A stretch of 32,000 nucleotides of DNA from Opitutales bacterium (GTDB lineage Bacteria > Verrucomicrobiota > Verrucomicrobiia > Opitutales > PNEW01), in assembly GCA_965219535.1 (NCBI GenBank), contig CBDCNV010000001.1, positions 30,001 to 62,000 of the forward strand, read 5' to 3'. Positions 4,216-22,679 of this stretch are shown here, piece after piece. Every line of letters starts with the position of its first letter. The stretch's first letter is position 1. The notes under the pieces were generated by a model that did no database searches, was not told where the DNA came from, and was given only the letters and a program-made list of their open reading frames with translations. The translations under genes and the position numbers were made by a program.

Positions 4216-4216
4216 G

Positions 4217-4258
4217 CGCTACGCGGTAATGTGGAAATGCGATAAAGCGGATACGCGG
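4217..4258 (+). repeat. Repeat R7 (ACGCGGTAA..AAATGCGATAAAGCGGATACGCGG), post-stop unit
   Basis: Related copies at 5471..5493 and 16410..16450. All three start within ~15 bp after a plus-strand stop codon. Confidence 0.7.
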
Positions 4259-4316
4259 GTATGTATCTACATGATTTGGTGGAGAAATAAATTGTCGATT
4301 GAGTAATTGTTATTCT

Positions 4317-4361
4317 ATTGTCATTGAGAAGAAGGCGGTAGCCGACTGCGGCAATGACAAT
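4317..4361. repeat. Repeat R2, short beta-arm variant (ATTGTCATTG...CAATGACAAT hairpin)
   Basis: ATTGTCATTGAGAAGAAGGCGGTAGCCGACTGCGGCAATGACAAT. The termini are perfect 10-bp inverted repeats. The interior matches the variant arm of the 17662..17769 copy. Confidence 0.7.
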
Positions 4362-4388
4362 TAATATTGATGTTTTATCCCCAACACT

Positions 4389-4883
4389 GTGCTAAGTGCT
4401 AAAGTCATACTTGAAGAATTAAAGAAGCAGGGTATTACACATATCGTCGGTCTTCCTGATAACGGATCACGGGTGCTCTTTGAGTTGTTGTGGGTTACAC
4501 CTGAAATTGAAGTCATTCAAGTCAGCCGCGAGGGGGAGGCATTTGCGATAGCTTCCGGTCTTTACCTGGGAGGAAAAAATCCGGCCGTACTTATTCAAAA
4601 TACCGGATTTTTAGAATCGGGAGATGCCTTTCGTGGCACCGTTTATAATATGAGAATCCCTGTTCTCCTATTTATCGGTTACCGTGGATACAAAACGTTA
4701 ACCCCGGGTGCCACGCGTGTGGATTCCGTGGCCACATTTCTCGAACCGACCCTGAAAGCCTGGGATATCCCCTACTCCATTCTCACTGATGATAAGGAGG
4801 CTGATCAGATCTCAAGTGGTGTGAAAAAAGCCTGTGATACTTCACGCCCCACAGCGGTTTTAATAGCCGAGGAGACAACTTAA
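4389..4883 (+). CDS. TPP-dependent decarboxylase, alpha subunit (sulfopyruvate decarboxylase ComD-like; N-terminal pyrimidine-binding domain only)
   Basis: GTG start. LPDNGSRVLFELL, SREGEAFAIASGLYLGGKNPAVLIQNTGFLESGDA. At 164 aa it has the size and architecture of split ComD. Confidence 0.75.
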   Translation: MLSAKVILEELKKQGITHIVGLPDNGSRVLFELLWVTPEIEVIQVSREGEAFAIASGLYLGGKNPAVLIQNTGFLESGDAFRGTVYNMRIPVLLFIGYRGYKTLTPGATRVDSVATFLEPTLKAWDIPYSILTDDKEADQISSGVKKACDTSRPTAVLIAEETT

Positions 4884-4885
4884 CG

Positions 4886-5455
4886 ATGCTTAATAAATAT
4901 ACCTGCCTTGAAAAGTTGGCCGCTCGTCGCAAGGACGAAATAATTATCACCAACATGGGGATCGCCAAACCCTGGGAAAATTTATCCGACGGCCCCTTTG
5001 ATTTTGCCTCCGTAGACAGTGGCATGGGACACGCCGCCGATCTGGCGCACGGTCTGGCTATCGCCCAACCCGATCGCCGTGTCATCACGCTCAACGGGGA
5101 TGGCAGTATGCTCATGTGTTTAGGAACGCTCGTTACCATCGCTCAACGACCGGTTGATAATTATGCCCTCGTGATTATTGAAAACGGCACTTATGAAATT
5201 ACCGGTAATCAATTCGTGCCGGGCGCCGGCAAAATAAATTATAAAACAATTGCTCGCGGTGCTGGAATTGAAGCGGTTTACACTGTTACTGATGACAGTG
5301 ACTTTGACCATAAGCTCGACCTTCTCTTTGAAGGGAAGGGCCCCCTCGTGTTCGTCTGGAAAGTTGATCAAGCCAATGAACCCGTCCCCAACTTCCAACT
5401 TCCCCTCTGGGAGCGCGCTCACCGCCTCCGCAAAACTTTGGTTGAAAATGCGTGA
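4886..5455 (+). CDS. TPP-dependent decarboxylase, beta subunit (ComE-like; TPP/Mg-binding domain)
   Basis: TPP-binding motif GDGSMLMCLGTLVTIA...IIENGTYEITGNQ. Starts 2 nt after the ComD-like stop. 189 aa. Confidence 0.75.
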   Translation: MLNKYTCLEKLAARRKDEIIITNMGIAKPWENLSDGPFDFASVDSGMGHAADLAHGLAIAQPDRRVITLNGDGSMLMCLGTLVTIAQRPVDNYALVIIENGTYEITGNQFVPGAGKINYKTIARGAGIEAVYTVTDDSDFDHKLDLLFEGKGPLVFVWKVDQANEPVPNFQLPLWERAHRLRKTLVENA

Positions 5456-5470
5456 ATGAGTTAACCTGTG

Positions 5471-5493
5471 TATGCGATGATGCGGATACGCAG
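5471..5493 (+). repeat. Repeat R7 copy
   Basis: TATGCGATGATGCGGATACGCAG, 16 bp after the stop at 5455. Confidence 0.65.
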
Positions 5494-5506
5494 ATATATC
5501 CATCAA

Positions 5507-5518
5507 CGATTTCGATTG
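5507..5518 (-). repeat. Heptad array, CGATTG orientation on the plus strand (short)
   Basis: CGATTTCGATTG, at the left side of the spacer. Confidence 0.5.
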
Positions 5519-5527
5519 TTCCCTTTA

Positions 5528-5579
5528 GTCATTGCGAGGAGCAAGGCGACGCGGCTACCAACTCCCTCGCAATGACAAT
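5528..5579. repeat. Repeat R2, short hairpin form
   Basis: GTCATTGCGAGGAG-20 nt-CTCCCTCGCAATGACAAT. Confidence 0.75.
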
Positions 5580-5660
5580 AAGGTGAATGTGTTAATGTGT
5601 GTATGAGATTAGGTAGGGAAGGCTGTACTCAATGCCTTTTATTACGACATATCTTTAAAC

Positions 5661-5783
5661 GCGGTAGGGACACCGCGTTCCACCTTATTGCATTATTCAT
5701 TGTTACAGGGTGGAGCGGGCTGTCCCAGCACGCTTCTTTATTAATTATTTACGATTAACGCGGTAGGGACACCGCGTTCCACC
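5661..5783. repeat. Repeat R3 triple: variant arm (5661-5684), inverted canonical arm (5709-5733), variant arm (5760-5783)
   Basis: GCGGTAGGGACACCGCGTTCCACC / GGTGGAGCGGGCTGTCCCAGCACGC / GCGGTAGGGACACCGCGTTCCACC. The middle arm can pair with either flank. The loops are AT-rich. Confidence 0.8.
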
Positions 5784-5864
5784 TTTTCTTAGTTTCTAAA
5801 CCCGAATAATTTTCTTGTATCTCATGCGACCAAAATAGGTAAACCAGCATTGACAGTAAGTTTA

Positions 5865-5888
5865 TGGAGGGCCACGCTCCGTCGTGGC
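5865..5888 (+). repeat. Repeat R5 (TGGAGGGCCACGCTCCGTCGTGGC), contains the GCCACG/CGTGGC palindrome
   Basis: Identical 24-mer at 20183..20206. Here it ends 35 bp upstream of ATG 5923. Confidence 0.8.
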
Positions 5889-5922
5889 CGCAGTGTTTTG
5901 AACGAAAATATAAAAACCATAA

Positions 5923-7293
5923 ATGAATTCATTAAATATCCAGAGAACTATAATGATTTTGTTAGTGCTGGGTTTTTTTACCGGACTCTCTTATGGTGAT
6001 AGGCACTCCTCTGAAGACTATATTATGGAACTATTACAATTGAATGAGCGTTCAAAAACGCTACTAAAAAAATCAGCGGGTATGCTCGAACTCGTGCCGG
6101 TCGTTTTGCCGGAAGGTGATAACCTAAAAACACATAATGATCTTTTCGGCTGGCCCGTGGCTACCTTGACCGGTGAAACCATAGTCGTTGTTTTCTATCG
6201 ACTACCTTTTCATTGGGGCGGCAATGAACCACGTGATGAATTTAGCACCTATACAATGATGACACGCTCTACGGACGGTGGAAAATCATGGTCACATCCA
6301 GTCGATCTCAAGTCTTTCATCAAAAAGGAAACCGTTGGGTGTCGATTGGACTTTGGAAATTCTATCGGAACTACTAAGGATGGCACGGTTGTCGTCGTGA
6401 CCAATTACGGAGTATTTCGCTCAGTAGATGAGGGAGAAAACTGGGAACACCTTTCCGGTGCCTATGGAGAGGAACAACTTTCCGGACCTGCAGGGAATAA
6501 CGGCCCGCGCCTTCTCGATCATCCGACCCATGGTCTCATTGTTGCCAGCCATAGCAACGCGCTGGCTGAAAAACGAAATCCTGATAGAACACCGTATATT
6601 TCTCCCGAAATCTGGGTGCGCTTTTCAAAAGACGGGGGCTATACCTGGAACGAGAAAAAACAGGATTTCCCGGACTTTGCCACTCCTATTGAACCCACAT
6701 TGTTACTACACGATGGCGCTCTATTGGTTGTCGCACGTTGCCACGGATATGAGAGTTTCGAACCCCAATATAAAACCTGGAGATACGTTCAGCTTTATGC
6801 GAAGAGCGGGTGGTTTCCTTTCAAACCTATGCTCTCAAGCATCCGCGCCACCGATGTCCGTGACATTAGCGAAAATCCTCATCACGGTGCATGGACACAG
6901 GACACCGTTGACTTGTGCTATAATCCGGTAAGCGAACGCATAGAATGCGTCGCTACGGACCGCAACGGCGACGTGGGTCAAGGGGCAGAGAATACACGGG
7001 ATGGTCAAACGCTCAACCTCTGGAGTATCGATCCCGAGGCATTGAAAAATGGAAGCAATGAATGGCGATTTGAGGGGACACTGCTTCATAGAAATGGTTA
7101 CATGAGTCGATCTGAAATTGACGGGATGCATCCCGGGGCCGCGATTGTTGATGAAAAAAACGGAGTGCAACATATTTTTGTCTATATTGGCTCACCTCTC
7201 GGACCCTCAGGAATATTCCGTGTCACCCGAACCCTCGATACCCAACGTCTCAGTGCCTTTCTCGAAAATGCGATTAAATTCCATTGTCTATAG
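5923..7293 (+). CDS. Secreted BNR/Asp-box repeat protein (sialidase-like six-bladed propeller glycosidase family)
   Basis: N-terminal signal-like segment. Three Asp-boxes SxDxGxxW: STDGGKSW, SVDEGENW, SKDGGYTW. Confidence 0.8.
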   Translation: MNSLNIQRTIMILLVLGFFTGLSYGDRHSSEDYIMELLQLNERSKTLLKKSAGMLELVPVVLPEGDNLKTHNDLFGWPVATLTGETIVVVFYRLPFHWGGNEPRDEFSTYTMMTRSTDGGKSWSHPVDLKSFIKKETVGCRLDFGNSIGTTKDGTVVVVTNYGVFRSVDEGENWEHLSGAYGEEQLSGPAGNNGPRLLDHPTHGLIVASHSNALAEKRNPDRTPYISPEIWVRFSKDGGYTWNEKKQDFPDFATPIEPTLLLHDGALLVVARCHGYESFEPQYKTWRYVQLYAKSGWFPFKPMLSSIRATDVRDISENPHHGAWTQDTVDLCYNPVSERIECVATDRNGDVGQGAENTRDGQTLNLWSIDPEALKNGSNEWRFEGTLLHRNGYMSRSEIDGMHPGAAIVDEKNGVQHIFVYIGSPLGPSGIFRVTRTLDTQRLSAFLENAIKFHCL

Positions 7294-7339
7294 TTTATAG
7301 TAAACTCACCGCCGAGTCGCAGCGTTCGCGGAGATTTTT

Positions 7340-7405
7340 CGATTGCGGATTTGGAGGATGTTGAGCTTCTCCCTTGATTCGATTGCGGATTGCAAATTGT
7401 CGATT
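7340..7405 (-). repeat. Heptad arrays, CGATTG orientation (two blocks, 7340-7354 and 7376-7405)
   Basis: CGATTGCGGATTTGG and GATTCGATTGCGGATTGCAAATTGTCGATT (period 7). Lies downstream of the stop at 7293. Confidence 0.8.
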
Positions 7406-7410
7406 TTTTT

Positions 7411-7483
7411 TTGTCATTGCGAGGAGCAACGCGACGTGGCAATCCAGGGGGACTTACATTTAGCAATAGACATCCCCCTGGAA
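7411..7483. repeat. Repeat R2, alpha arm plus inner hairpin (right arm truncated)
   Basis: TTGTCATTGCGAGGAGCAACGCGACGTGGCAATCCAGGGGGA...CCCCCTGGAAT. Confidence 0.8.
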
Positions 7484-7488
7484 TGAAA

Positions 7489-7518
7489 GATGTCGCCATC
7501 GGCTCGGAAGTGGCTATC
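7489..7518 (+). repeat. Repeat R6 unit (GATGTCGCC..GGCTCGGAAGTGGCTATC)
   Basis: Matches the units at 22529..22613. It ends in the GTGGCTATC tail shared with R4. Confidence 0.7.
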
Positions 7519-7520
7519 TC

Positions 7521-7582
7521 TTATCGACAATCGGAAATCCACAATCGGTTGTGGCTATCTTTTATCGACTATCTTCAATCGT
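7521..7582 (+). repeat. Heptad array, CAATCG orientation, abutting a start codon
   Basis: TTATCGACAATCGGAAATCCACAATCGG..TTGTGGCTATC..TTTATCGACTATCTTCAATCGTATA, then ATG 7586. Confidence 0.8.
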
Positions 7583-7585
7583 ATA

Positions 7586-8758
7586 ATGAATAAACCATTA
7601 AAAGTAGGGATACTCGGTGTGGGGCAGCGTGGTCTTCAACACTTGAAAGCGCTGTGGCAGTTGCAGTCCGAGGGGCTGGTCGAAATAACGGCGTTGACGG
7701 ATTCGTTCGCGGCCAATCTCGATGGTGATAAGATAAGAAGTTTCGTTCCCGACTACCGTGAGGATAATATAAAGTTGACGACCACTTTCGACGAACTGAT
7801 CGCCGAGAACAAACCCGATGTGCTATACCTGGCAATACCACCCAATCTCCACCGCGGGGAAGTAATTAGCGCAGCACAGGCAGGCATACATCTTTTTGTT
7901 GAGAAACCCATGAGCCTCTACCTCGACGAGGCAATCGAAATGGAAACGGCGATCAAAGAAGCCGGTGTTTATTCCGCGGTTGGTTTCCAGCAAAGATTTG
8001 AACCCCGCCATGAAATGGTAAAGGAATTTCTATCCGACAAACGCGTGATTCAGGCAAATTACACTTTTCACACGCCTATAGAATTTCACAATGTTAAACA
8101 CATGCCCACAGAAACCGTTGGTGGACCCACCAATCGGATATGGACTGCAAGCCGTGCCTGGACGGGAACAACAGCGGTTGAAAACGGGATTCACACGCTC
8201 GATCTATGGCGTTACTGGTTGGGTGATGTAAATTGGGTACAGGCGAATTATGTCAATCGTCTGCCGAACGAGATTATCGAGGGAGCCGATAATCCTCATT
8301 CTTATAATATCTTTTTTGGATTTGAGAATGGCGTAGTTGCGAACATGGCACTTTCACGTCTGCGCCGCGTCTACAACACCTATCTCGATCATCAAATTCT
8401 TTGGAACGAAGGGCGGCTTGTGCTTAATCCGGATGAATTTGTATCTTATCATTACGAGGGCGTCTATCCACCGGAAATACTTCCCGATGACTCCCAAATT
8501 CGTCATTCACTTAGTGTCGACCCGGTAAACGATACACTTTTAGATTATTCAACCTTGGGAATAAGTCGTAATTTTATAGAGGCTATTATCGCACAATCTC
8601 CAAAAAATATTCGTTCTCCATTTTCAGACGCGATGAATAGTTTGACTGCAGTGATCGCTGCCAATGTTTCAGATTCTATGGATGGTACGCGTATATATCT
8701 TGAGGATCTCATCACAGATGAAAATTATGCGCCGCATCGCGCGAAAAAAGACAGTTAA
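7586..8758 (+). CDS. Gfo/Idh/MocA-family NAD(P)-dependent oxidoreductase
   Basis: Rossmann N-terminus KVGILGVGQRGLQH and EKP motif (LFVEKPMSL). Start moved to ATG 7586 because the 7490 extension only translates spacer repeats. Confidence 0.85.
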   Translation: MNKPLKVGILGVGQRGLQHLKALWQLQSEGLVEITALTDSFAANLDGDKIRSFVPDYREDNIKLTTTFDELIAENKPDVLYLAIPPNLHRGEVISAAQAGIHLFVEKPMSLYLDEAIEMETAIKEAGVYSAVGFQQRFEPRHEMVKEFLSDKRVIQANYTFHTPIEFHNVKHMPTETVGGPTNRIWTASRAWTGTTAVENGIHTLDLWRYWLGDVNWVQANYVNRLPNEIIEGADNPHSYNIFFGFENGVVANMALSRLRRVYNTYLDHQILWNEGRLVLNPDEFVSYHYEGVYPPEILPDDSQIRHSLSVDPVNDTLLDYSTLGISRNFIEAIIAQSPKNIRSPFSDAMNSLTAVIAANVSDSMDGTRIYLEDLITDENYAPHRAKKDS

Positions 8759-9699
8759 TGAAATTATTAATCTATCCGGCATTAGACAAAAATGAGGTGG
8801 AAGAAATTGCTTCGGTATCCGACGAGGTAGAAATTCTAAATATCAACTCCGAAGAGGAAGCGCTTCAAGAAATCGAAGCCATCGATGCTATTTACGGCTC
8901 AATTACTCCCGCTTTATTGGAGAGATCGAGGAAGTTGAAATGGATTCAGACACCGATCATTGGCCTGGAAAATTATATGTTCCCCGCCTTAATCAAGAGT
9001 GATATCAAAATCACTAACATGGCCGGTATCTTCAGCGATGTGATTGCCGACCACACATTGGCTTACATTTTAATGTTCGCCCGCGGGTTTCACGTCTATA
9101 TGCGCAAACAACTCGCGAGAAACTGGGATCCCGGTGTTCCTGTCATTCATCTCGCCGATCAAACATTGGGAATTATCGGGCTCGGCGGGATCGGGATGGG
9201 AATTGCCAGTCGCGGCTCTGCCTGCGGGATGCGGGTTATCGCAACGGATGCAAAGCAGCGGGAAAAACCCGACTTCGTCAACGCATTGTGGGAGAACGAT
9301 AAGCTCAATGATCTTCTCGAGGAATCTGATTTCGTCGTCAGTTGCGTCCCCCATAGCCCTGAAACGGTTAAGCTAATCGGTGAGGAGCAACTACAGCGAA
9401 TGAAGAAGACCGCTTATTTTATCAATATTTCACGTGGGGTCGTCGTGGATTTAGCCGCATTAACGCGAGCCCTGGAAACAAAAACGATTGCCGGCGCTGG
9501 CCTCGATGTCTTTGAGACTGAACCGCTGCCCTCAGATCATCCCCTTTGGGAAATGGAAAACGTAATCATTACTCCTCACATCGCTGGGGCCAGTGCCTAC
9601 ATTCAGCGACGGCGCGTCGCTACGTTAAAAGAAAACCTGCGACGCTATATCTCGGGGGAACCGCTCCAGAATGTCGTAGACCGCAAGAAGTGGTTCTAG
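8758..9699 (+). CDS. D-isomer-specific 2-hydroxyacid dehydrogenase
   Basis: GIIGLGGIGMGIA, SRGVVVD, LDVFETEPLP, TPHIAG. The start overlaps the upstream stop (TAATG). Confidence 0.9.
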   Translation: MKLLIYPALDKNEVEEIASVSDEVEILNINSEEEALQEIEAIDAIYGSITPALLERSRKLKWIQTPIIGLENYMFPALIKSDIKITNMAGIFSDVIADHTLAYILMFARGFHVYMRKQLARNWDPGVPVIHLADQTLGIIGLGGIGMGIASRGSACGMRVIATDAKQREKPDFVNALWENDKLNDLLEESDFVVSCVPHSPETVKLIGEEQLQRMKKTAYFINISRGVVVDLAALTRALETKTIAGAGLDVFETEPLPSDHPLWEMENVIITPHIAGASAYIQRRRVATLKENLRRYISGEPLQNVVDRKKWF

Positions 9700-9743
9700 C
9701 GATTGTCGATTTCCGATTTGCGATTTTCGATTGAACCTAGCGG
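9700..9743 (-). repeat. Heptad array, CGATTG orientation, plus R9 (GATTGAACCTAGCGG)
   Basis: CGATTGT CGATTTC CGATTTG CGATTTT CGATTG (perfect period 7) starts 1 nt after the stop. R9 recurs at 22339..22353 and inverted at 20224..20239. Confidence 0.85.
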
Positions 9744-9795
9744 ATACTAAAAGCTTATATAAACACTATGACCGATAAGCGTTAGGCTCTTTCCC

Positions 9796-9830
9796 CAAAT
9801 CGACAATCGGCAATCGGCAATCGTAAATTG
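9796..9830 (+). repeat. Heptad array, CAATCG orientation, abutting the stop of the minus-strand gene
   Basis: C AAATCGA CAATCGG CAATCGG CAATCGT AAATTG. In the sense of gene 9831..12089 it reads CGATTG after the stop. Confidence 0.85.
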
Positions 9831-12089: not shown

Positions 12090-12169
12090 AAATAAAGGCT
12101 AAACTTTATAGTGACGCTGCTAACTGTCAATCGATAGACCGAAATCTAATATCCACGCGGTTCTGACAT

Positions 12170-14797: not shown

Positions 14798-14798
14798 T

Positions 14799-14831: not shown

Positions 14832-16409
14832 ATGGTAAAAATGCGTCCTAATTTCCTGATCATCATCACTGATCAATGGCACCCGCGTTGCTTCGGTTAT
14901 GCGGGTCATCCCATCGTTCGCACGCCTAATATCGATAGCCTTGCCTCAGGAGGTATCTATTTTTCTCGTGTCTACAGTCCGCAACCACTTTGTATGCCAA
15001 CACGCGCATCCCTGTTTACAGGACTCACTCCACGTGGTCATGGCGTACGTATGAACGGTATTCCGCTGAACCCATCCATCCCTACCTTTACTGACGCGCT
15101 GCGACAAAGCGGGTACACAACTTACTGCTCGGGAAAAATACATTTAAATTCAAGCAACACTCCTAATGACATTCCTTTAGAAAGCCTCGATCCAAATAAA
15201 TATCCGGAGAGCTCAAGGCTTTGGAGAGAGGGAATAATTAAAGACCTCCCACTCCCGTATTACGGCCTCCAAGAGATAGACCTCTGCAACGGCCATGGTC
15301 ATGGCTCTGTTGGTCATTATGAAACCTGGCTTAAATCCGAGCACCCTGACAAAGCGCACCTATTTTACGATCACGTAGAATGTGAAAAATCAAGTCCGGC
15401 CAAAGTTCTTTTCAATCGTCAATCCTACAAATGGGCGCTGCCAGCGGAACTTCACCCCACAACTTATATCGCCGATCGGACTGTCAATTTTCTAAATAAC
15501 ACTAAAGAGAAAAGGGGCAATCAACCCTTTTGCGCGATGTGCAGCTTTGGTGATCCCCATTCTCCCTTTGCTCCGCCCGCTCCTTATTGTTATGACTACG
15601 ACCCGGCTGATGTTCCACCTCCTCTATCGAGAGAGGGTGAGTTGGATGATTTACCCCCACACTTCCGTGCGATGGTAGAACAAGATGTTATGACAAGCGG
15701 GAATAAATCTCAGGCGATGAATGCTACTGCGCCTTACTACGCAGAATGCGCCGCGCATTATTATGGTGTCATCAGCCTCGTAGATGAACAGGTCGGTCGC
15801 GTCATGGATGCGTTACGAAAAAATGAACTGGATGAAAACACGGTAGTGATTTTTCTCGCTGATCATGGCGAAGCGCTTGGTGATCACGGTTTGTGGGGTA
15901 AGGGCCCCTATCATTACGACAGTGTCATACGGGTCCCTTTTCTCATAAACTGGCCGGGTAAAATCGAACCGGGAACGGTTCACGCTGGCGTTTGCAGCCT
16001 GCTCGATTTTGCACCAACGGTATTGGATATCGCGGGAGTCCCGATTCCTGAAGGTGATCTCCCCGGATCAACTGAAGCTCCCGGCGCACCATCCCCCTGG
16101 CCCGGTCGCAGCCTCCTACCGGTGCTTACGGGAGAGGATAAATCGACGGACACATGCGCTTTAGTCGAAATGGATGAAGATTACCTCGGATTTAAAATGC
16201 GTACTCTTGTAACCGAACGCTACCGATTAACCTGTTACTCCGGTCAGGATTACGGAGAACTTTTTGACCTCCATGAAGATCCCGATGAGTATTTTAACCT
16301 CTGGGACAAACCGGAACACCAGAAATTGCGCGATGAATTACGCATTCAACTGTTGGATAAGATTATGCAGACCGACATTTCACTTCCCCGGCAACTGTCA
16401 CGGTCATGA
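14832..16409 (+). CDS. Sulfatase (formylglycine-dependent, Cys-type), no signal peptide
   Basis: IIITDQWH and CMPTRASLFTG (CxPxR). LADHGE. An in-frame TAA immediately precedes ATG 14832, so the N-terminus MVKMRPNFLIIITDQ cannot be extended. Confidence 0.9.
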   Translation: MVKMRPNFLIIITDQWHPRCFGYAGHPIVRTPNIDSLASGGIYFSRVYSPQPLCMPTRASLFTGLTPRGHGVRMNGIPLNPSIPTFTDALRQSGYTTYCSGKIHLNSSNTPNDIPLESLDPNKYPESSRLWREGIIKDLPLPYYGLQEIDLCNGHGHGSVGHYETWLKSEHPDKAHLFYDHVECEKSSPAKVLFNRQSYKWALPAELHPTTYIADRTVNFLNNTKEKRGNQPFCAMCSFGDPHSPFAPPAPYCYDYDPADVPPPLSREGELDDLPPHFRAMVEQDVMTSGNKSQAMNATAPYYAECAAHYYGVISLVDEQVGRVMDALRKNELDENTVVIFLADHGEALGDHGLWGKGPYHYDSVIRVPFLINWPGKIEPGTVHAGVCSLLDFAPTVLDIAGVPIPEGDLPGSTEAPGAPSPWPGRSLLPVLTGEDKSTDTCALVEMDEDYLGFKMRTLVTERYRLTCYSGQDYGELFDLHEDPDEYFNLWDKPEHQKLRDELRIQLLDKIMQTDISLPRQLSRS

Positions 16410-16450
16410 TGCGAATACGCGTAAATGCGATGATGCGATAAAGCGGCTGC
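16410..16450 (+). repeat. Repeat R7 copy (extended)
   Basis: GCGAATACGCGTAAATGCGATGATGCGATAAAGCGGCTGC, directly after the stop. Confidence 0.7.
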
Positions 16451-16536
16451 TGGTTGAAATTTAGAAATCAGGATAATACCGAGTTTATAATTATAAATGA
16501 TTGGATATTTGTAGACACGGACATTGCACTCCTCCT

Positions 16537-16646
16537 ATTGTCATTGCGAGGGAGGCGATTGCCTACCACGGCAATCTAGGGGAATGTCTATTGCGTAATT
16601 TAGTCCCCCTGGATTGCTTCGTCGCGTTGCTCCTCGCAATGACAAT
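16537..16646. repeat. Repeat R2, full ~110-bp imperfect palindrome
   Basis: ATTGTCATTGCGAGGGAGGCGATTGCCTACCACGGCAATCTAGGGGA...TCCCCCTGGATTGCTTCGTCGCGTTGCTCCTCGCAATGACAAT. Confidence 0.9.
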
Positions 16647-16654
16647 TTGAATAC

Positions 16655-16669
16655 ATTCGACAATCGACA
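16655..16669 (+). repeat. Heptad array, CAATCG orientation, abutting a start codon
   Basis: ATTCGACAATCGACA, then ATG 16670. Confidence 0.7.
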
Positions 16670-17629
16670 ATGTTTCGCATCTTACTCACGACGACATCGT
16701 ACCAGGATACTCCGGGTGAACATCACCAATTGCTGGAAGACGCTAACTTTGACATTGTGCGTGAACGCGGACCGCTCAGCGAAGAGCAGATTCTGGAATG
16801 TGTCGGTGATATCGATGGCTTCCTCTGCAGCGATGATGCGATCACGCGCGCGGTAATTGATAAATCTCTCCCCCGGCTTAAAGTCATCAGTAAATACGGT
16901 ATCGGTCTCGACAAGATCGATGTAAACTACGCCACAGAGAAAAAAATTCCCGTCCTTTTCACTCCGGGAGTTAACCATACGACGGTAGCAGAACATACAT
17001 TCGGCCTTCTCTTGGGCCTGGAACGTAAAATAGTTACCGAGGCAAATTTTACCCGCGGGGGAGATTGGAAACGACTCACCGGTAACGAAATTATGGGGAA
17101 GACGATAGGCATTGTCGGACTCGGAAGAATTGGTCAGGAAGTAGCCATACGCGCAAAAGCATTCGGTCTGAATGTCATCGCTTATGGTAATTACTGGGAT
17201 GAAAGCTTTGCCAGTGATTTTAAAATTGAGCGTTGTGAATCATTAAAAGACCTTATTAAAAACGCGGATATAATAAGTCTTCACACTAAACTGAATGATA
17301 AAACCCGTCACATGATTGATGCGGAGTGCATCGATTTAATGAAGCCGGGTGTGATTATTTTAAATACCGCGCGCGGTGAACTCATCGATACTGCCGCACT
17401 GCTCCAGGCATTAGAAAGTGATCATGTCGGGGGTTATGGCGCCGATGTTCTCGATCAGGAACCACCCCCACCCGATCACCCGCTGTTAACGGCAAAAAAC
17501 TGTATTATCACCCCCCACATCGGTTCGCGCACCTACCAAAGCGTAGAGCGACAGGCCGGTATGGCTACCCGTAATCTCATCAATTTCTTAGAGGGAAAAC
17601 CACCCCTCGCGCAGGCCAATGATTGCTGA
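16670..17629 (+). CDS. D-isomer-specific 2-hydroxyacid dehydrogenase (phosphoglycerate/glyoxylate-reductase-like)
   Basis: GIVGLGRIGQEVA, TARGELID, ADVLDQEPPPPDHPLL, TPHIGS. Confidence 0.9.
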   Translation: MFRILLTTTSYQDTPGEHHQLLEDANFDIVRERGPLSEEQILECVGDIDGFLCSDDAITRAVIDKSLPRLKVISKYGIGLDKIDVNYATEKKIPVLFTPGVNHTTVAEHTFGLLLGLERKIVTEANFTRGGDWKRLTGNEIMGKTIGIVGLGRIGQEVAIRAKAFGLNVIAYGNYWDESFASDFKIERCESLKDLIKNADIISLHTKLNDKTRHMIDAECIDLMKPGVIILNTARGELIDTAALLQALESDHVGGYGADVLDQEPPPPDHPLLTAKNCIITPHIGSRTYQSVERQAGMATRNLINFLEGKPPLAQANDC

Positions 17630-17639
17630 TTTGGGAATG

Positions 17640-17660
17640 CGGATTGCGGATTGAAATCAA
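17640..17660 (-). repeat. Heptad array, CGGATTG x2 plus AAATCAA
   Basis: CGGATTG CGGATTG AAATCAA, 11 bp after the stop at 17629. Confidence 0.75.
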
Positions 17661-17661
17661 T

Positions 17662-17769
17662 TTGTCATTGCGAGGAGCAACGTGACGAAGCAATCCAGGG
17701 GGATACCGGACACGCATTGACAGCTCCCTGGATCACCGCAGTCGGCTTCGCCTCCTTCGCGATGACAAT
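17662..17769. repeat. Repeat R2, full ~108-bp imperfect palindrome (alpha arm plus beta arm)
   Basis: TTGTCATTGCGAGGAGCAACGTGACGAAGCAATCCAGGGGGA...GCTCCCTGGATCACCGCAGTCGGCTTCGCCTCCTTCGCGATGACAAT. Confidence 0.9.
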
Positions 17770-17796
17770 TTAGATTATATCACGGACGCGATCAAC

Positions 17797-17837
17797 CGTC
17801 GCCCGTTGGGCTATGGCCGACAGGCAGCCCGCTCCAC
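17797..17837 (-). repeat. Repeat R8 (reverse orientation) fused to a partial R3 arm
   Basis: The reverse complement of 17797..17824, CCTGTCGGCCATAGCCCAACGGGCGACG, matches 21235..21260. GACAGGCAGCCCGCTCCAC resembles the R3 right arm. Confidence 0.65.
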
Positions 17838-17869
17838 TTATGAGCAAAGTAATTTAATTCACTCTTTTC

Positions 17870-17901
17870 ATCTTGTGTTTTTTGTGCTTTTTGTGGCTAT
17901 C
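17870..17901 (+). repeat. Repeat R4 32-mer
   Basis: ATCTTGTGTTTTTTGTGCTTTTTGTGGCTATC, 18 bp upstream of ATG 17919. Confidence 0.9.
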
Positions 17902-17918
17902 TAATTCGACAATCGCTC
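17902..17918 (+). repeat. Heptad array, CAATCG orientation, abutting a start codon
   Basis: TAATTCGACAATCGCTC, then ATG. Confidence 0.7.
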
Positions 17919-19010
17919 ATGCTTGAAAAATTTTACGCCGTTCCGGAAAGCACACATAACACACTGGTAGAGGCCGCTTATCTCAAGCGTGGTTACACCA
18001 GGGACGAGGTAATACACGCCGTCCGTGTTGCGGCCAATGCATCACGCCATGGTATTCGCACTCACAATGCGATTAAGGCATTACATCTCGATCTCCACTA
18101 CGGAAGCGGGGCAGGCGGATGCCTGCCAGGCGCAGTTATTGAAAAAAAGCCCTCGCGTTTTGCTGCGGCAGAAATTTGGAACTGCAATCAAAAACTGGGG
18201 CAAGCCGTTGCTTCTGAAGCGATGGAAAAATGTATCGAAATGGCGGAAAAATACGGTGTGGGGTTAATCAGCGTCGATAACGCTTTTCATTATCTGTGGG
18301 GCGGCGGTTATGTCATGGAAGCCGCGAAAAAAGGTTATATCGCTTATACAAATTGTACCGCCGCTTTAGCTGAGGTCGTTCCTTTCAAAGGTGTGACCGC
18401 TACCCTCGGAACTAATCCACATAGTTGGGGATTCCCCACCACCGAGGTGATTGGTTTTCCCCTCGTTATCGATTGGGCAACCTCGGTCATATCCACCGGT
18501 AAAGTGCAGCAACTCAGTCGTGAGGGGTTGCCCCTTCCTCCCAATGCTGCGGTCGATAGTGATGGCAACGTTACCACTGACCCGTCGCAAGTCGCGGCCA
18601 TGCTTCCCTTCGGGGAGCACAAGGGTTATGCATTGTGCCTCATGGATGAGCTCATCGCTGCTTTAATCGGAGGGAGCCTCCCCACACTGCGCGGTCGATG
18701 GACCGATGATGACGAAAAACATACTCCCTGCTTTTTCTTTCAAGTTATTCACCCCGATGCGCTCAACGCCGGTGCCTTTGCCCGGGGTCGGACGCAAACA
18801 GAAAATGTAAAAGCCGTCTTTGACGACATATTCGGTCACGGCAATGAAGACTGTATGTTCCCCGGTCAACTCGAGGCCGAAGCGGCTCAGCGGTCGGAGA
18901 AGCACGGCGGCCTTCTCTTTAGTGAAAATGAGATCCAGGCTTTTAATGAAATTGCTAACGAATGCGATCAGCCACCCTGGAAGATTGATAATTTTAAAGT
19001 GGCTGAATAA
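17919..19010 (+). CDS. Ldh_2-family (malate/L-lactate/sulfolactate/diketogulonate-type) NAD(P)H-dependent dehydrogenase
   Basis: GTNPHSWGFP and FGEHKGYALCLMDELIAALIGG, typical of the Ldh_2 family. The substrate cannot be assigned from sequence alone. Confidence 0.85.
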   Translation: MLEKFYAVPESTHNTLVEAAYLKRGYTRDEVIHAVRVAANASRHGIRTHNAIKALHLDLHYGSGAGGCLPGAVIEKKPSRFAAAEIWNCNQKLGQAVASEAMEKCIEMAEKYGVGLISVDNAFHYLWGGGYVMEAAKKGYIAYTNCTAALAEVVPFKGVTATLGTNPHSWGFPTTEVIGFPLVIDWATSVISTGKVQQLSREGLPLPPNAAVDSDGNVTTDPSQVAAMLPFGEHKGYALCLMDELIAALIGGSLPTLRGRWTDDDEKHTPCFFFQVIHPDALNAGAFARGRTQTENVKAVFDDIFGHGNEDCMFPGQLEAEAAQRSEKHGGLLFSENEIQAFNEIANECDQPPWKIDNFKVAE

Positions 19011-19035
19011 ACATTTATTGTAGATATATAAAATT

Positions 19036-20121
19036 ATGGCCATTCAAACACTCGACTCCTCACAAACAAAATATGATCTACTCTCCCTCGGCGAGTGCAT
19101 GATCCGCCTGTCGCCCGGTGGTCACGGACGCCTTGAATATGCTCAAAATCTGGAGGTATGGGCTGGCGGCGGTGAATATAATGTTGCCTATGCTGTTACG
19201 CGCCTGGGACTGCGAGGAGGATTTGTCAGTAAGTTGCCCGACAACCCTGTAGCCAGAATCTTAATTAACCACGCACGCGCGGTGGGCTTGGATACTTCCA
19301 ACATCATCATGGAAGAATACGACGGTATCGGACGCGCAGGTCGCGTCGGTCTTAATTTTACCGAAGTAGGCACAGGAGTGCGGGCTTCAGTGACGATGTA
19401 TGACCGTGGACAAAGCGCGATATCCCTCGCCGATGCATTAGAATTTGATTATAAAGATATCTTCGAAAAACAGAAAACGCGTTGGTTACATACGGGTGGC
19501 ATAATGAGCGCGCTCAGTCCCCAGTGCGCGAAAATAGTCAATGAAGCGGCGGCGGCGGCACACGCAAACGGCACCATAGTCAGTTACGACCTCAATTTCC
19601 GCTCAAAGTTATGGAGTTCTGAAGATGCCATCGCCGCGAACACAAAAATCGCGCCCCATGTAGATGTCCTCATCGGTAATGAAGAGGATTTTCAAAAAGC
19701 GCTGGGATTTGAAGTCGAAGGCGTGGATGAAGATTTAAAGGAACTCCCGATTGAAAGTTTTAAAAGGATGGTAGAACGGGTCGTCGAAACCTACCCTAAT
19801 ATCAAAGTCGTCTGCACAACACTGCGCGAAGTTAAAAGTGGCCTGATCAATAATTGGAGCGGTATTCTCTGGCACGAAGGCAGTTTTTATGAATCGAACC
19901 GATTCGAAGATCTTGAAATTGAGGACCGAGTCGGAGGAGGTGACGGATTTTCCAGCGGTGTCGCTTATGGATTTCTCAATAATATGGACCCGCAGGAAAT
20001 CGCGAACTTCAGCGCCGCCCACGGTGCACTCTTGCAATCCACCGGTGGAGATACTTCACAAATTACCCTCGAAGAAGTCGAACACGTCGCCCAAGGCGGC
20101 AGCGCCCGGATCAAAAGATAA
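19036..20121 (+). CDS. PfkB-family sugar(-acid) kinase, 2-dehydro-3-deoxygluconokinase-like
   Basis: GECMIRLSP, GGGEYNVAYAVTRLG, PfkB signature DRVGGGDGFSSG. Lies 25 bp after the Ldh_2 gene, so they probably form an operon. Confidence 0.85.
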   Translation: MAIQTLDSSQTKYDLLSLGECMIRLSPGGHGRLEYAQNLEVWAGGGEYNVAYAVTRLGLRGGFVSKLPDNPVARILINHARAVGLDTSNIIMEEYDGIGRAGRVGLNFTEVGTGVRASVTMYDRGQSAISLADALEFDYKDIFEKQKTRWLHTGGIMSALSPQCAKIVNEAAAAAHANGTIVSYDLNFRSKLWSSEDAIAANTKIAPHVDVLIGNEEDFQKALGFEVEGVDEDLKELPIESFKRMVERVVETYPNIKVVCTTLREVKSGLINNWSGILWHEGSFYESNRFEDLEIEDRVGGGDGFSSGVAYGFLNNMDPQEIANFSAAHGALLQSTGGDTSQITLEEVEHVAQGGSARIKR

Positions 20122-20138
20122 ATCGATTGCCAAATTGG
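20122..20138 (-). repeat. Heptad block, CGATTG orientation, directly after the stop
   Basis: ATCGATTGCCAAATTGG. Confidence 0.65.
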
Positions 20139-20170
20139 GATAGCCACAAAAGGCACAAAAAACACAAGAT
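20139..20170 (-). repeat. Repeat R4 32-mer, inverted orientation (the only inverted copy in the window)
   Basis: GATAGCCACAAAAGGCACAAAAAACACAAGAT is the reverse complement of ATCTTGTGTTTTTTGTGCCTTTTGTGGCTATC. It has 1 mismatch to 17870..17901. Confidence 0.9.
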
Positions 20171-20182
20171 AGATTTAGAGAA

Positions 20183-20206
20183 TGGAGGGCCACGCTCCGT
20201 CGTGGC
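20183..20206 (+). repeat. Repeat R5 copy
   Basis: TGGAGGGCCACGCTCCGTCGTGGC, identical to 5865..5888. Ends 46 bp upstream of ATG 20252. Confidence 0.85.
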
Positions 20207-20223
20207 TGATTAAGCTTTTAATA

Positions 20224-20247
20224 ACCGCTAGGTCCAATCAACAATTG
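20224..20247 (+). repeat. Inverted R9 plus weak CAATC block
   Basis: ACCGCTAGGTCCAATCAACAATTG. ACCGCTAGGTCCAATC is the reverse complement of GATTGGACCTAGCGGT, which compares with GATTGAACCTAGCGG at 9729 and 22339. Confidence 0.6.
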
Positions 20248-20251
20248 AAAC

Positions 20252-21031
20252 ATGGCATATTTAAACAAACTTTTTGGGCTTGAGGGTAAAACTGCGGTCA
20301 TTGTCGGGGGGACGGGTGTGCTCTGCGGGGCGATGGCTGAGGGGTTGGCTGGGGCCGGTGCCGAAGTGGTGCTCGTCGGACGTGACGAAGATAAAGCTAA
20401 TACGCGTCTCAGCGCCATTCATGAATACCAGGAGAAAGCCTACTTTGAACGCGCTGACGTGACACATAAAGAGGAAATCGAAGATTTGCTCACACGTGTA
20501 ATTAAGAAATCGGGGAAAGCGGACATTCTCGTAAATGGGGCAGGAACGACTGCACCCACTCCTATTGTAGATATTAAAGAAGATGAGCTGGATAATATTC
20601 TCAACATTAACTTGAAATCGATTTTTTTCGCGAGCCAGGTATTTGGAAGCTACATGATCGAAAATAATATTAAAGGGAGCATGATTAATATCGGCTCGAT
20701 GTCAGGACTCGTACCCCTTTCACGCGTTTTTGCCTACTCAGCAACTAAAGCTGCCGTCCATAATATATCAAAAAATCTCGCCCGCGAATGGGCTGCACAG
20801 AACATCCGCGTAAATACAATCGTCCCTGGATTCTTTCCCACCGATTTAAACCGTAAATACCTCGTCGGCGAACGGCTCGAAAATATAATGCGGCACACAC
20901 CCATGAATCGGTTTGGCGATGCCAGTGAACTTATTGGCGCAACCTTACTTCTTGCCAGCAATCAAGCGGGGTCATTCATCACCGGCAGCGAAATTGTCGT
21001 CGACGGCGGGTTTTCCTCAATGACGATTTGA
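20252..21031 (+). CDS. SDR-family oxidoreductase (KduD/gluconate-5-dehydrogenase-like)
   Basis: GGTGVLCG glycine-rich loop, NGAG, YSATK (YxxxK), PGFFPT. Confidence 0.85.
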
Positions 21032-21035
21032 CAAT

Positions 21036-21054
21036 TTTCGATTGTCGATTTGGT
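21036..21054 (-). repeat. Heptad array, CGATTG orientation, after the stop
   Basis: TTTTCGATTGTCGATTTGG. Confidence 0.75.
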
Positions 21055-21101
21055 GTTAAAATTTATGTGATTAAGTATTATTTATATGATTAAGGCGTTT
21101 G

Positions 21102-21180
21102 GGTGGAACGGGCTGTCCCTAGCACGTTTTATCTATTATTAAAGTTAAATAAAAAGCGTGCTGGGACAGCCCGCTCCACC
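21102..21180. repeat. Repeat R3 inverted pair
   Basis: GGTGGAACGGGCTGTCCCTAGCACG - AT-rich loop - GCGTGCTGGGACAGCCCGCTCCACC. Confidence 0.9.
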
Positions 21181-21212
21181 TATGATTAATATAATATATT
21201 TCGCTATTCACT

Positions 21213-21272
21213 CTTATGTTTTATGTGCCTCTTACCTGCCGGCCATAGCCTTGGCGACGGCTGGTGGCTATC
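21213..21272 (+). repeat. Repeat R4 interrupted by R8 (21235..21260)
   Basis: CTTATGTTTTATGTGCCTCTTA | CCTGCCGGCCATAGCCTTGGCGACGG | CTGGTGGCTATC. The R4 head and tail are separated by a nested unit. Confidence 0.7.
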
Positions 21273-21276
21273 CCTT

Positions 21277-21320
21277 CACTCGCAAATCGCAAATCGACAA
21301 TCGGCAATCGCAAATCGAAT
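21277..21320 (+). repeat. Heptad array, CAATCG orientation (longest copy), abutting a start codon
   Basis: CACTCG CAAATCG CAAATCGA CAATCGG CAATCG CAAATCG AAT, then ATG 21321. Confidence 0.9.
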
Positions 21321-22307
21321 ATGTCTTCCTTAGCCATTCGCTATCATCAGTACGGTAATCCCGCAGAGTGTCTGGTTGCGGAGGAAGTATCGCTGCCCGA
21401 AGTGGGGCCGGACCAAGTGCTCATTAATCTGTTGGCAGCGTCAATCAACCCATCGGATTTCGGTATGATAATGGGTAGCTACGGCCGAAAGAAGGAACTT
21501 CCCGCTGTAGCCGGTCGTGAAGGCGTCGGTGAAATCATGGAGGTCGGAAAAAATGTGAATCACCTAAAACCCGGCCATTGGGTGCAATTCCCTGATGCTC
21601 TCGGCACCTGGCAGGAAACCTGTATAGCCGATGCTGTGGGTTTGAAAGTTTTACCCGAAGGTCTTCCTCTCGAAATGGCGGCAACGTTATTTATCAATCC
21701 GCCGACCGCATGGCGGTTACTACACGGTTTTGTCGAATTAAAAAGTGGCGATTGGATAATTCAAAACGCAGCTAACTCCGCGGTGGGCATCTTTGTCATT
21801 CAGCTCGCGAAAAAATTAGGGGTTAAAACGCTGAACATCGTGCGCCGAAAAGAGCTTGAGAGTGAACTCAAAGAGCAGGGGGCTGATGAAGTATTTACCG
21901 AAGAGGATGATTACTGGAAATTGATAAAAGATATTACCGACGGGAAAGGAATTAAGCTCGCGCTGAATTCTGTCGGCGGTGAAAGCGCGATCAATCTTCT
22001 TAAAGCACTGTCTCCGGGTGGAACACATGTCACTTTTGGCGCGATGAGTTTTGACTCCATTCGTTTTCCTACGCGCCAGTTAATTTTCGATGAAATAAAA
22101 CTCACCGGTTTCTGGGTGGACGGCTGGCTGCGCTCCCATTCCAAGGAGGAAGTCGACTTCATGTTCGAGGAGATCTATGCCCTCATCAAAGAGGAAACGT
22201 TTTCCACAATCGTAGAAAAATGGTATTCCTTATCCGCGTTCAAAGAGGCCCTCGAACACGCAGCAAAGCCCCGCTTCGGAAAAATTCTTTTCCACGGAAA
22301 AGCATGA
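21321..22307 (+). CDS. MDR-superfamily NAD(P)H-dependent reductase (quinone oxidoreductase / 2-enoyl thioester reductase-like)
   Basis: AGREGVGEIMEVG, NAANSAVGIFVIQLAKKLG. Start moved to ATG 21321 because the 21264 extension (..NRKSTIGNRKS..) only translates the heptad array. Confidence 0.85.
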   Translation: MSSLAIRYHQYGNPAECLVAEEVSLPEVGPDQVLINLLAASINPSDFGMIMGSYGRKKELPAVAGREGVGEIMEVGKNVNHLKPGHWVQFPDALGTWQETCIADAVGLKVLPEGLPLEMAATLFINPPTAWRLLHGFVELKSGDWIIQNAANSAVGIFVIQLAKKLGVKTLNIVRRKELESELKEQGADEVFTEEDDYWKLIKDITDGKGIKLALNSVGGESAINLLKALSPGGTHVTFGAMSFDSIRFPTRQLIFDEIKLTGFWVDGWLRSHSKEEVDFMFEEIYALIKEETFSTIVEKWYSLSAFKEALEHAAKPRFGKILFHGKA

Positions 22308-22353
22308 TTCAATTGTCGATTTGCGATTGTCGATATCCGATTGAACCTAGCGG
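22308..22353 (-). repeat. Heptad array, CGATTG orientation, plus R9
   Basis: TTCAATTG TCGATTTG CGATTGT CGATATC CGATTG AACCTAGCGG, directly after the stop. Confidence 0.85.
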
Positions 22354-22390
22354 TCACCCAAAATTATTCCCTTATTTAGTAATTCTCCTC

Positions 22391-22495
22391 TTGTCACCGC
22401 GAGGTTGCTTGTCAGCCGTGGCGATCCAGGGGCCTGCCAATACGTGACCGTTATCCCCCTGGATTGCTTCGTCGCGTTGCTCCTCGCAATGACAT
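22391..22495. repeat. Repeat R2, full ~105-bp imperfect palindrome
   Basis: TTGTCACCGCGAGGTTGCTTGTCAGCCGTGGCGATCCAGGGGCC...TCCCCCTGGATTGCTTCGTCGCGTTGCTCCTCGCAATGACAT. The right arm is identical to that of 16537..16646. Confidence 0.9.
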
Positions 22496-22505
22496 AATGA
22501 AATTA

Positions 22506-22613
22506 TTCTTTGTGTTTCTTGTGTGTTCGGAAGATATCGTCCAGCAACAGTGGGGCTCGGAAGTGCCTTTGGAAGATGTCGCCCCACAGCTGTAGGGCTC
22601 GGTAGTGGCTATC
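22506..22613 (+). repeat. R4-like head followed by two tandem R6 units, ending in GTGGCTATC
   Basis: TTCTTTGTGTTTCTTGTGTG, then GGAAGATATCGTCCAGCAACAGTGGGGCTCGGAAGTG and GGAAGATGTCGCCCCACAGCTGTAGGGCTCGGTAGTGGCTATC. Confidence 0.75.
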
Positions 22614-22679
22614 TCAAATCAATAATTGACGGAATAAAGAGATTTTGTCTATATCCACGCATTTCCAGTCGGAATTCAA

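Follow-up and report, generated by a model that had tools for sequence, protein, structure and literature searches.

Repetitive extragenic palindromes (REPs), their inverted dimers (REPINs) and the bacterial interspersed mosaic elements (BIMEs), where clusters of REPs are combined with other motifs (PMC2817692, PMC3333891), are known together with the REP-associated tyrosine transposases (RAYTs) from E. coli, Pseudomonas and the GTAG super-family (PMC2817692, PMC3116915, PMC3333891, PMC3733652). Di Nocera et al. report a strong enrichment of GTAG-tagged REPs in Opitutus terrae, where GTGG replaces the tag in the majority of one family, GTAG-20 (PMC3733652). Here we describe a 32,000-nt stretch of DNA from an Opitutales bacterium (contig CBDCNV010000001.1, positions 30,001 to 62,000; hereafter the window), in which the gene spacers at 4216-22679 are built of short repeats. 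The closest known system is the REP/BIME/REPIN mosaic. An earlier note on this DNA, written from the sequence alone, knew of no described system with this architecture. However, comparable architectures are found in the BIMEs of E. coli, in REPIN dimers and in Neisseria, where intergenic regions are mosaic (PMC2817692, PMC3333891, PMC3733652), and the REP, BIME and REPIN literature shows that an architecture of this kind has already been described.

As in these systems, the spacers hold tagged extragenic palindromes of 20-40 nt, inverted dimers with a short spacer and mosaics of motifs, several families occur per genome, and the repeats lie between co-directional or convergent genes. The module maps below show REPs in alternating orientation together with other conserved motifs, in an arrangement that recurs in the spacers, as in BIMEs. 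This match is one of architecture and not of homology, as E. coli motifs such as Y, Z, S and L are inapplicable. Unusual compared with known mosaics are the mirror-image arrays of 7-9-nt tandem units that bracket the mosaics here and are lacking in BIMEs, the insertion of a 30-nt repeat into other repeats, and the modules that cross phyla, R2 and N9 being almost unchanged in distant phyla. The composites, in contrast to REPs and BIMEs, measure up to 400-800 nt.

Other short repeats are less similar. Mazel et al. are said to have described short tandemly repeated repetitive (STRR) heptamers in cyanobacteria in 1990, and Elhai et al. reportedly found in 2008, in Nostoc and other cyanobacteria, small dispersed repeats of 21-27 nt that are non-coding, can form hairpins, are nested and insert precisely both in repeats and in conserved sequence. 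Compared with these dispersed repeats, our module R8 has 30 nt, a different sequence and a host in a different phylum. TAACTGA heptamers occur next to genes in Beggiatoaceae, Cyanobacteria and Bacteroidetes, in Beggiatoaceae just 5' of start codons, with a patchy distribution across phyla; Shine-Dalgarno sequences are rare there and horizontal transfer is suspected (PMC4679880). The window shares with TAACTGA and STRR heptamers the intergenic direct repeats of period 7, often a few nt from a start codon (six window genes). However, the unit here is CGATTGN, inverted pairs bracket the spacer and adjoin stop codons equally often, and the heptads are nested alongside octad and nonamer arrays. Full-text searches of the literature with six repeat 11-12-mers returned unrelated papers only, mostly eukaryotic, and a full-text search on intergenic repeats of Verrucomicrobia gave nothing relevant.

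We think it reasonably likely that the spacers are BIME-like mosaics, i.e., small non-coding hairpin repeats that have settled in the intergenic DNA of this Opitutales lineage, with insertion, nesting, copying and exchange still going on. Inverted arrays of short units bracket each spacer and enclose nested palindromic modules, so that the whole makes up a single large composite hairpin. Two of the modules are R2, which reads GTCATTGCGAGGAGC...GCAATCC, and N9 (also called R4), which reads GCCAC(AAAAGGCAC)n...(GTGCCTTTT)nGTGGC. The spacers of 4216-22679 contain the following features.

4216-4388: an array of R7 octads (4217-4262), then a single pair of heptads (4290-4301) and a short hairpin of R2 type (4318-4367).
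5456-5922: R7 (5472-5497) and heptads (5507-5518), followed by R2 as a short hairpin (5526-5580), REP units with the GTGG tag at 5658-5684 (minus strand), 5709-5733 (plus strand) and 5757-5783 (minus strand), and an R5 hairpin (5866-5889); RNA fold z = -6.1.
7294-7585: heptads (7338-7350 and 7377-7406), R2 with a truncated right arm (7411-7485), the mini-module R6, which ends in GTGGCTATC (7489-7518), and heptads in reverse together with another GTGGCTATC (7520-7581).
9700-9830: between convergent genes, a minimal closed element of five heptads (9700-9733), R9 (9733-9743), a core and four reverse heptads (9797-9823); the fold pairs its two ends, z = -5.7.
12090-12169: 80 nt, module-free.
14480-14831: between divergent genes, four heptads (14528-14554), a mini R2 arm (14552-14575), a REP dimer or REPIN (14617-14691), R4/N9 (14764-14798) and reverse heptads (14800-14838).
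16410-16669: an array of R7 (16410-16452), R2 as a full hairpin (16535-16648) and, touching the ATG at 16670, reverse heptads (16654-16666).
17621-17918: heptads over the stop codon (17621-17653), a full R2 hairpin (17661-17766), R8 within a half REP (17786-17838), R4/N9 (17868-17902) and reverse heptads (17905-17915).
19011-19035: 25 nt, module-free.
20122-20251: one heptad (20124-20129), R4/N9 reversed (20139-20170), an R5 hairpin (20184-20206), R9 reversed (20225-20235) and degenerate reverse heptads that reach the ATG at 20252.
21027-21320: heptads over the stop codon (21027-21051), a REP dimer or REPIN (21101-21182), R4/N9 (21212-21272) holding the 30-nt R8 at 21235-21264, six reverse heptads (21277-21317) and the start codon at 21321; fold z = -7.8.
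22308-22679: heptads and R9 (22310-22353), R2 as a full hairpin (22390-22497), an N9 array of which only the head is present (22506-22527), and R6 in two copies that end in GTGGCTATC (22535-22613).
22680-22755: tRNA-Phe, directly after the last spacer.

The nine repeat families on which the earlier note was based exist: direct and inverted repeat searches recover every one of them, at the same or nearby coordinates, and the seven spacers that it took as examples have the module content it gave them. Its statement that every spacer is modular has to be narrowed. A common set of a few repeat modules builds 10 of the 11 spacers of at least 80 nt, while the spacers 12090-12169 and 19011-19035 are free of modules. 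In a fuzzy-pattern scan, 46 of the 48 module matches fall in true spacers at 4216-22679 and the other two are weak coding matches; no match was found in 1-3489, as the note had said, or past 22700. Arrays of at least two CGATTGN units number nine in the window, with 0.14 expected from composition-matched shuffles.

Three of the 46 spacer matches lie inside an over-long open reading frame (ORF) call at 7490-8758. Its true start codon is at 7586, right after the spacer 7294-7585, and the Pfam domain starts at residue 37 of the long ORF. Mechanical ORF calls run into repeats at both 7490-7585 and 21264-21320, the true start of the second being 21321. At 2,055,873-2,056,163 of OY829953.1, a related genome, a 97-aa ORF (..LLVPFVAI..LRALRVSAV..) is made wholly of arrays. 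Such repeats are thus an annotation hazard, with starts called within them and spurious ORFs built of arrays.

According to the earlier note, the modules follow one another in a fixed order from left to right. The order is indeed non-random, but what is conserved is a mirror symmetry and not a left-to-right grammar tied to gene direction; the R4 next to the left heptads at 20139-20170, for example, is inverted. On the left of a spacer the heptads have the form CGATTGN, on its right the form NCAATCG, whether the genes on either side are co-directional, convergent (9700-9830) or divergent (14480-14831). As the polarity of the heptads is the same in all gene orientations, and as R4 occurs inverted, the apparent order is a mirror nesting of outer arrays, palindromic modules and core.

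The same arrangement is found elsewhere. The Opitutales metagenome-assembled genome OY829953.1 is ~94-95% identical to the window in coding DNA (at 1,136,001-1,152,000), with ~9% divergence at third-codon positions. A scan of genome contigs with the pattern of the R4 20-mer gave more than 109 blocks, 20 of which are from OY829953.1 and cover 160 kb in 13 separate regions. In these blocks and the window, Tandem Repeats Finder detects 221 arrays of period 6-10 once redundancy is removed, and periods 7, 8 and 9 are in sharp excess among them. Before this removal, 172 of 227 arrays lay outside coding sequence, although non-coding DNA makes up only 21% of the bases. Over five array families in the same DNA, 87 arrays are concordant with the mirror polarity and 9 discordant, and the pattern is alike for ++, --, +- and -+ gene pairs. 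Two outcomes that the earlier note had set against its own claim are therefore not seen: order and orientation are not random genome-wide, and the modules are not local, since the same grammar appears in the 13 regions of OY829953.1. Arrays of period 7 and 8 number 6.8 per 10 kb in OY829953.1, compared to a median of 1.3 per 10 kb in an unbiased control of 741 kb around Ldh_2 homologues of other bacteria (80 loci); five of the 80 control loci contain N9 and one contains R2.

Elsewhere in OY829953.1 the brackets consist of AGTCAAAA octads or CACAAAAGG nonamers in place of CGATTGN heptads. Spacers of 300-800 nt at 2.04-2.07 Mb read AGTCAAAA(n), then GATAGCCAC(AAAAGGCAC)n, then CGCGGATAA(n), then a core and finally the mirror image of the whole; they fold as single long hairpins and are 73-91% identical to each other over 200-480 nt, with recurring composites of 400-500 nt. 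Nested composites of inverted arrays of ~450 nt also fold as single hairpins. The R7 module of the window is an octad/nonad array (GCGATNNN) of the same family (C9) as the CGCGGATAA arrays of OY829953.1. In OY829953.1, C9 arrays lie inside nonamer arrays, whereas R7 lies outside the heptads in the window, so the hierarchy is specific to each composite family and not universal. Counts of nesting are 5:0 for octads outside nonamers and 3:1 for nonamers outside C9. In the region 2,040,001-2,072,000 of OY829953.1 (L042, L075, L044 and L106), composite repeats part some 20 genes that are unrelated to each other, stand mostly alone and occupy both strands. It resembles a cassette array; no integron features were seen there.

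The individual modules link the mosaics to REPs. The R3 arm is a small hairpin with a GGTGG tag, a 9-bp stem, a TCCC loop and a return stem. It is present in 17 copies of 8 variants, with 88.9% of cells paired and compensatory changes at two pairs; GGTGG at the 5' end is invariant over all 8 variants. In the dimers at 14617-14691, 21101-21182 and 5709-5783 the tags point outward and the AT-rich linker has ~20-25 nt. All seven R3-type units in the window are in spacers, and more copies occur in OY829953.1, CBDANS01 and another relative, L234. R3 therefore has the sequence traits of REPs of the GTAG super-family and REPINs, namely an imperfect palindrome of 20-40 nt with a stem of 6-13 bp, a short loop and an unpaired GTAG-like tag, extragenic and in many copies, that forms inverted dimers. 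It is a GTGG-tagged REP in REPIN-like inverted dimers. A cmscan search of the whole window against the Rfam families (E <= 1) returned only the tRNA-Phe, with sub-threshold microRNA noise on R3 dimers.

R8 is an exact 30-nt unit, CCAGCCGTCGCCAAGGCTATGGCCGGCAGG, with 19 copies within three hosts: nonamer arrays (..AGCA^CAAG..), octad arrays (..GTCA^AAAG..) and the loop of the R3 right arm (..GGGA^CAGCCC..). Excising the 30 nt in silico restores the host repeat every time, and no target-site duplication is seen at R8 copies in any of the three host contexts. R6 takes the same site as R8 in the nonamer module, both directly 5' of GTGGCTATC. A possible filled and empty site is formed by four heptads and a mini-R2 at 14528-14582, which are flanked by AAAGCAAGAAA and AAAGCAAAATAAA and absent in OY829953.1; there may be a direct repeat of ~11 nt around these extra heptads. 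The earlier note had offered stepwise nested insertion with strong target preference as its alternative. This alternative is supported by the precise insertion of R8 in three unrelated host repeats, by the common site of R6 and R8 and by composites of 150-500 nt that recur as a whole, both in different spacers and in different genomes. In these respects the spacers are similar to miniature inverted-repeat transposable elements (MITEs) and the Neisseria mosaics (Correia elements, dRS3 and RS repeats), which have terminal inverted repeats, are non-coding, insert into repeats and are present or absent among strains. However, the spacer ends here are inverted tandem arrays of variable copy number and not a fixed terminal inverted repeat, R8 comes without a duplication, the one candidate direct repeat is that of ~11 nt, and no parent insertion sequence (IS) was identified.

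Turnover of the spacers can be followed in five genomes: the window, OY829953.1 and three further relatives of the operon (L230, which is metagenome contig Ga0315339_1000472, L231 and L234) that were found by a scan of metagenomes with the Ldh_2 protein. L230 is ~92% identical to the window at the nucleotide level, and L231 and L234 are ~89% identical. Of 7 orthologous spacers that carry modules, 5-6 have an inner content in OY829953.1 that is unlike that of the window, and the content differs again in the other three genomes. Conserved in OY829953.1 are only 16410-16669 (96.9% over 258 nt) and the module-free 12090-12169. Orthologous spacers thus change much faster than synonymous sites. The position of 20122-20251 has four different cores among the five genomes, and in L230 and L231 it is occupied by the R2-R6 composite that the window has at 7294-7585. 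Other modules replace those of 17621-17918 in OY829953.1, L230 and L234, and the spacer at 21032-21320, 289 nt long in the window, has shrunk or stayed as short as 61 nt in L230, the two extremes of its length. The core of 9700-9830 is inverted in OY829953.1; a simple inversion switch (inverton) was rejected, as the inverted core is 70% identical while the flanking genes are ~94-95% identical. The heptads beside stop and start codons, on the other hand, are kept at most orthologous boundaries, with drift in copy number (2 vs 7 units at 21032) and sequence (~26% differences at 9700). At 14528, both OY829953.1 and L230 lack the left heptads of the divergent spacer.

One relative has lost a gene at such a site. 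At 4700-4830 of L230 (15041-16660 in the window), most of the sulfatase gene is gone after a break at ~70 codons, and at the junction R5 (reverse) and an N9 array are followed by GTGGCTAT and by heptads that extend to the next start codon. Because modules form the junction, the deletion was apparently mediated by them, which links the repeats to gene loss.

We suggest that mosaics of this kind could arise through the action of a HUH/Y1 transposase of the RAYT or IS200-IS605 type, which would mobilise the hairpins as single-stranded DNA. Slippage would lengthen and shorten the arrays, and the inner cores would be exchanged when shared outer arrays undergo ectopic recombination or gene conversion with one another. 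The fixed order would then be a by-product of palindromic nesting, a preference for repeat targets and the copying of composites. Any role as a bidirectional attenuator or as a stabiliser of mRNA 3' ends would be secondary.

Several points weigh against this BIME-like origin. The window contains no transposase of the required kind and no cognate RAYT gene flanked by REPs, and a tblastn search with IS200 TnpA over 2.58 Mb of loci had no match, although this is a weak test. Clean insertion boundaries are seen only for R8, R6 and the one possible filled and empty site, and much of the turnover could be due to recombination instead of transposition. The blocks of OY829953.1 were chosen by their N9 match, hence the sample is biased towards repeat-rich DNA. 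Purely selfish insertion does not predict that heptads persist at most gene boundaries, often touching start or stop codons, and near-identical R2 and N9 arms in distant phyla are atypical of REPs, which are mostly vertical and lineage-bound. Neither the persistence of the arrays nor the near-identical modules are explained by current REP/RAYT models.

The persistence of the heptads would fit an explanation by a closing stem. Here the outer inverted arrays would be a functional stem (RNA or DNA) that loops out the interior, the inner modules would be passengers and the spacers tolerant landing pads; the stem would join neighbouring stop and start codons (translational coupling, reinitiation) or attenuate bidirectionally between convergent genes. 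The repeat spacers of the window fold at z = -2.3 to -7.8, and in most predicted folds the outer heptads at the two ends pair mutually and close the spacer into one multi-branched hairpin. Arrays lie over the stop codons at 17627 and 21029 and extend up to the start codons at 16670, 17919 and 21321, and they are kept at most orthologous boundaries where the cores are replaced. From persistence, codon contact and modelled pairing, the bracketing arrays may act as such a stem. However, the divergent spacer has both arrays in the window and lacks the left one in OY829953.1 and L230. The arms are also imperfectly complementary, the ~26% difference in array sequence is between genomes that are ~94-95% identical, and covariation cannot test complementarity because the arrays are repetitive. 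We regard a functional closing stem as possible, if clearly not probable.

It is somewhat less likely again that no dedicated mobility is involved and that a few ancestral composite spacers were spread by segmental duplication and ectopic gene conversion, the arrays and palindromes being made in place by slippage and quasi-palindrome template switching. Such a history would fit the long collinear similarity between composite copies, the core swaps between conserved flanking arrays, the duplication-like direct repeat around the extra heptads at 14528 and the different copy numbers of arrays among genomes, such as those at 21032. It is at odds with the exact boundaries of R8 in three unrelated contexts, which conversion of composites does not explain, with the canonical REP tag and stem-loop of R3, and with the occurrence of modules in 13 dispersed regions and in further metagenome-assembled genomes.

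A further explanation concerns the modules found beyond the lineage. The N9 hairpin occurs with fixed polarity in about ten phyla, among them Acidobacteriota, Latescibacterota, Dehalococcoidia, Planctomycetota, Victivallales, NC10 and Marinimicrobia. An inverted partner lies upstream of 55 of 121 N9 anchors and downstream of 2; the anchor arm was fixed by the search pattern, while the partner arm was not. The R2 arm (GTCATTGCGAGGAGCRAMGCGACG..GCAATCC) is found at ~92% identity in the alphaproteobacterial Methylosinus trichosporium OB3b plasmid pOB3b1 (L310, 2500-2585), as part of an 80-nt hairpin that lies between convergent genes, and also in a plasmid of the cyanobacterium Calothrix sp. PCC 6303 (L311, 2505-2615). 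It is further present in 119 IMG/VR contigs (L111-L229), whereas the N9 20-mer has no match among the viral contigs of IMG/VR. Outside the lineage R2 is either a full hairpin or a lone arm just 5' of a ribosome-binding site, and it is without annotation throughout. In Latescibacterota OZ242010.1 (L005, L008 and L020), TTGAACGGGCTGTCGCC stands beside N9 arrays and is similar to the window R3 stem GGAACGGGCTGTCCC; judged by sequence likeness, more than one module may be common to several phyla. The breadth of R2 and N9 could mean that very small non-coding elements spread horizontally. It can be imagined, at a small chance, that mirror arrays, R2 and N9 are members of a class of single-strand hairpin elements that spans phyla and is so far undescribed; the arrays would persist at gene boundaries and serve there as closing stems or landing pads. 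If so, intergenic DNA would be a safe harbour for them, and the shared homology would enable the exchange of spacer cores, and possibly of the intervening genes, within and between lineages.

The earlier note preferred a functional expression scaffold, with terminator or insulator hairpins after a stop codon and promoter or leader modules before the next start, which we consider quite doubtful. Heptads stand 0-5 nt from six start codons, where they leave no room for a Shine-Dalgarno sequence, much as the TAACTGA heptamers stand just 5' of start codons in Beggiatoaceae (PMC4679880); heptad brackets are kept at most orthologous spacers, and R5 is a good terminator-like hairpin, the copy in 5456-5922 being the best match of the intrinsic-terminator scan. 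However, this R5 lies 30 nt 5' of a start codon within a row of co-directional genes. The mirror layout is alike in convergent and divergent spacers, with a polarity that ignores gene direction, and inner modules differ at orthologous positions. Of 64 start boundaries, 16 have an array no more than 10 nt away, and the same is true of 17 of 68 stop boundaries, i.e., there is no start bias. Over 4000-23000, matches to the sigma-70-type promoter consensus (33, with 30.0 expected) and the intrinsic-terminator consensus (24, with 19.5 expected) are at the level of shuffled sequence. The lack of start bias and the shuffle-level consensus counts do not support a directional design of terminator then promoter. 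As a whole, the interpretation in the earlier note is partly supported.

The idea of an integron-like cassette array with attC-type palindromic spacers, suggested by the unrelated single genes parted by similar palindromic repeats at 2.04-2.07 Mb of OY829953.1, has a negligible probability and was rejected on boundary sequence and synteny, as spacer ends read directly as CGATTG... / ...CAATCG and not as RYYYAAC / GTTRRRY core sites, genes lie on both strands in an order that is syntenic over the five genomes with only the spacers varying, and the only recombinases in the window, which has no integrase, are IS3- and IS1595-type transposases 3' of the tRNA.

About one fifth of the sampled lineage DNA is non-coding and much of that is repeat mosaic, i.e., a large and fast-evolving compartment in uncultured polysaccharide degraders. 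Five genomes with different cores at the same sites are a natural test case for REP-like nesting and turnover.

The genes at 3490-22307 form a block of sugar and acid catabolism in which the plus strand predominates. It encodes short-chain dehydrogenases/reductases, a split thiamine pyrophosphate (TPP) decarboxylase, a BNR protein, a GFO/IDH/MocA protein, two 2-hydroxyacid dehydrogenases, a sulfatase, Ldh_2, PfkB and a zinc-dependent alcohol dehydrogenase, as well as two FG-GAP/ASPIC proteins on the minus strand. The TPP_enzyme_N and TPP_enzyme_C domains are in neighbouring ORFs (4389-5455), as in split sulfopyruvate/phosphonopyruvate decarboxylases. The split decarboxylase, the sulfatase and several dehydrogenases in one block may belong to a pathway for sulfonated or sulfated sugars. 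A contig search with the sulfatase returned a 1,973-nt Logan contig that is identical to the window.

The DNA 3' of the tRNA-Phe (22756-32000) has IS remnants: an rve fragment at 23125-23658 (minus strand), a pair of IS3 type at 26879-28062 and, from 31567, a zinc ribbon of IS1595. An inverted repeat of 79 nt (23472-23550 and 27715-27793) suggests two IS copies in opposite orientations, and the region is probably an integration hotspot that closes off the repeat-rich block. A 300-nt direct repeat of 76% identity (25690-25989 and 30618-30917) lies within the large ORFs 24712-26400 and 29106-31337, the second of which has an Ig-like CHU_C-associated domain; this repeat is probably a common protein domain and not a mobile repeat. 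Just 3' of the tRNA-Phe there are also two AT-rich tandem repeats of period 11-12, at 22798-22824 and 22999-23021, one of which includes TAACTGA.

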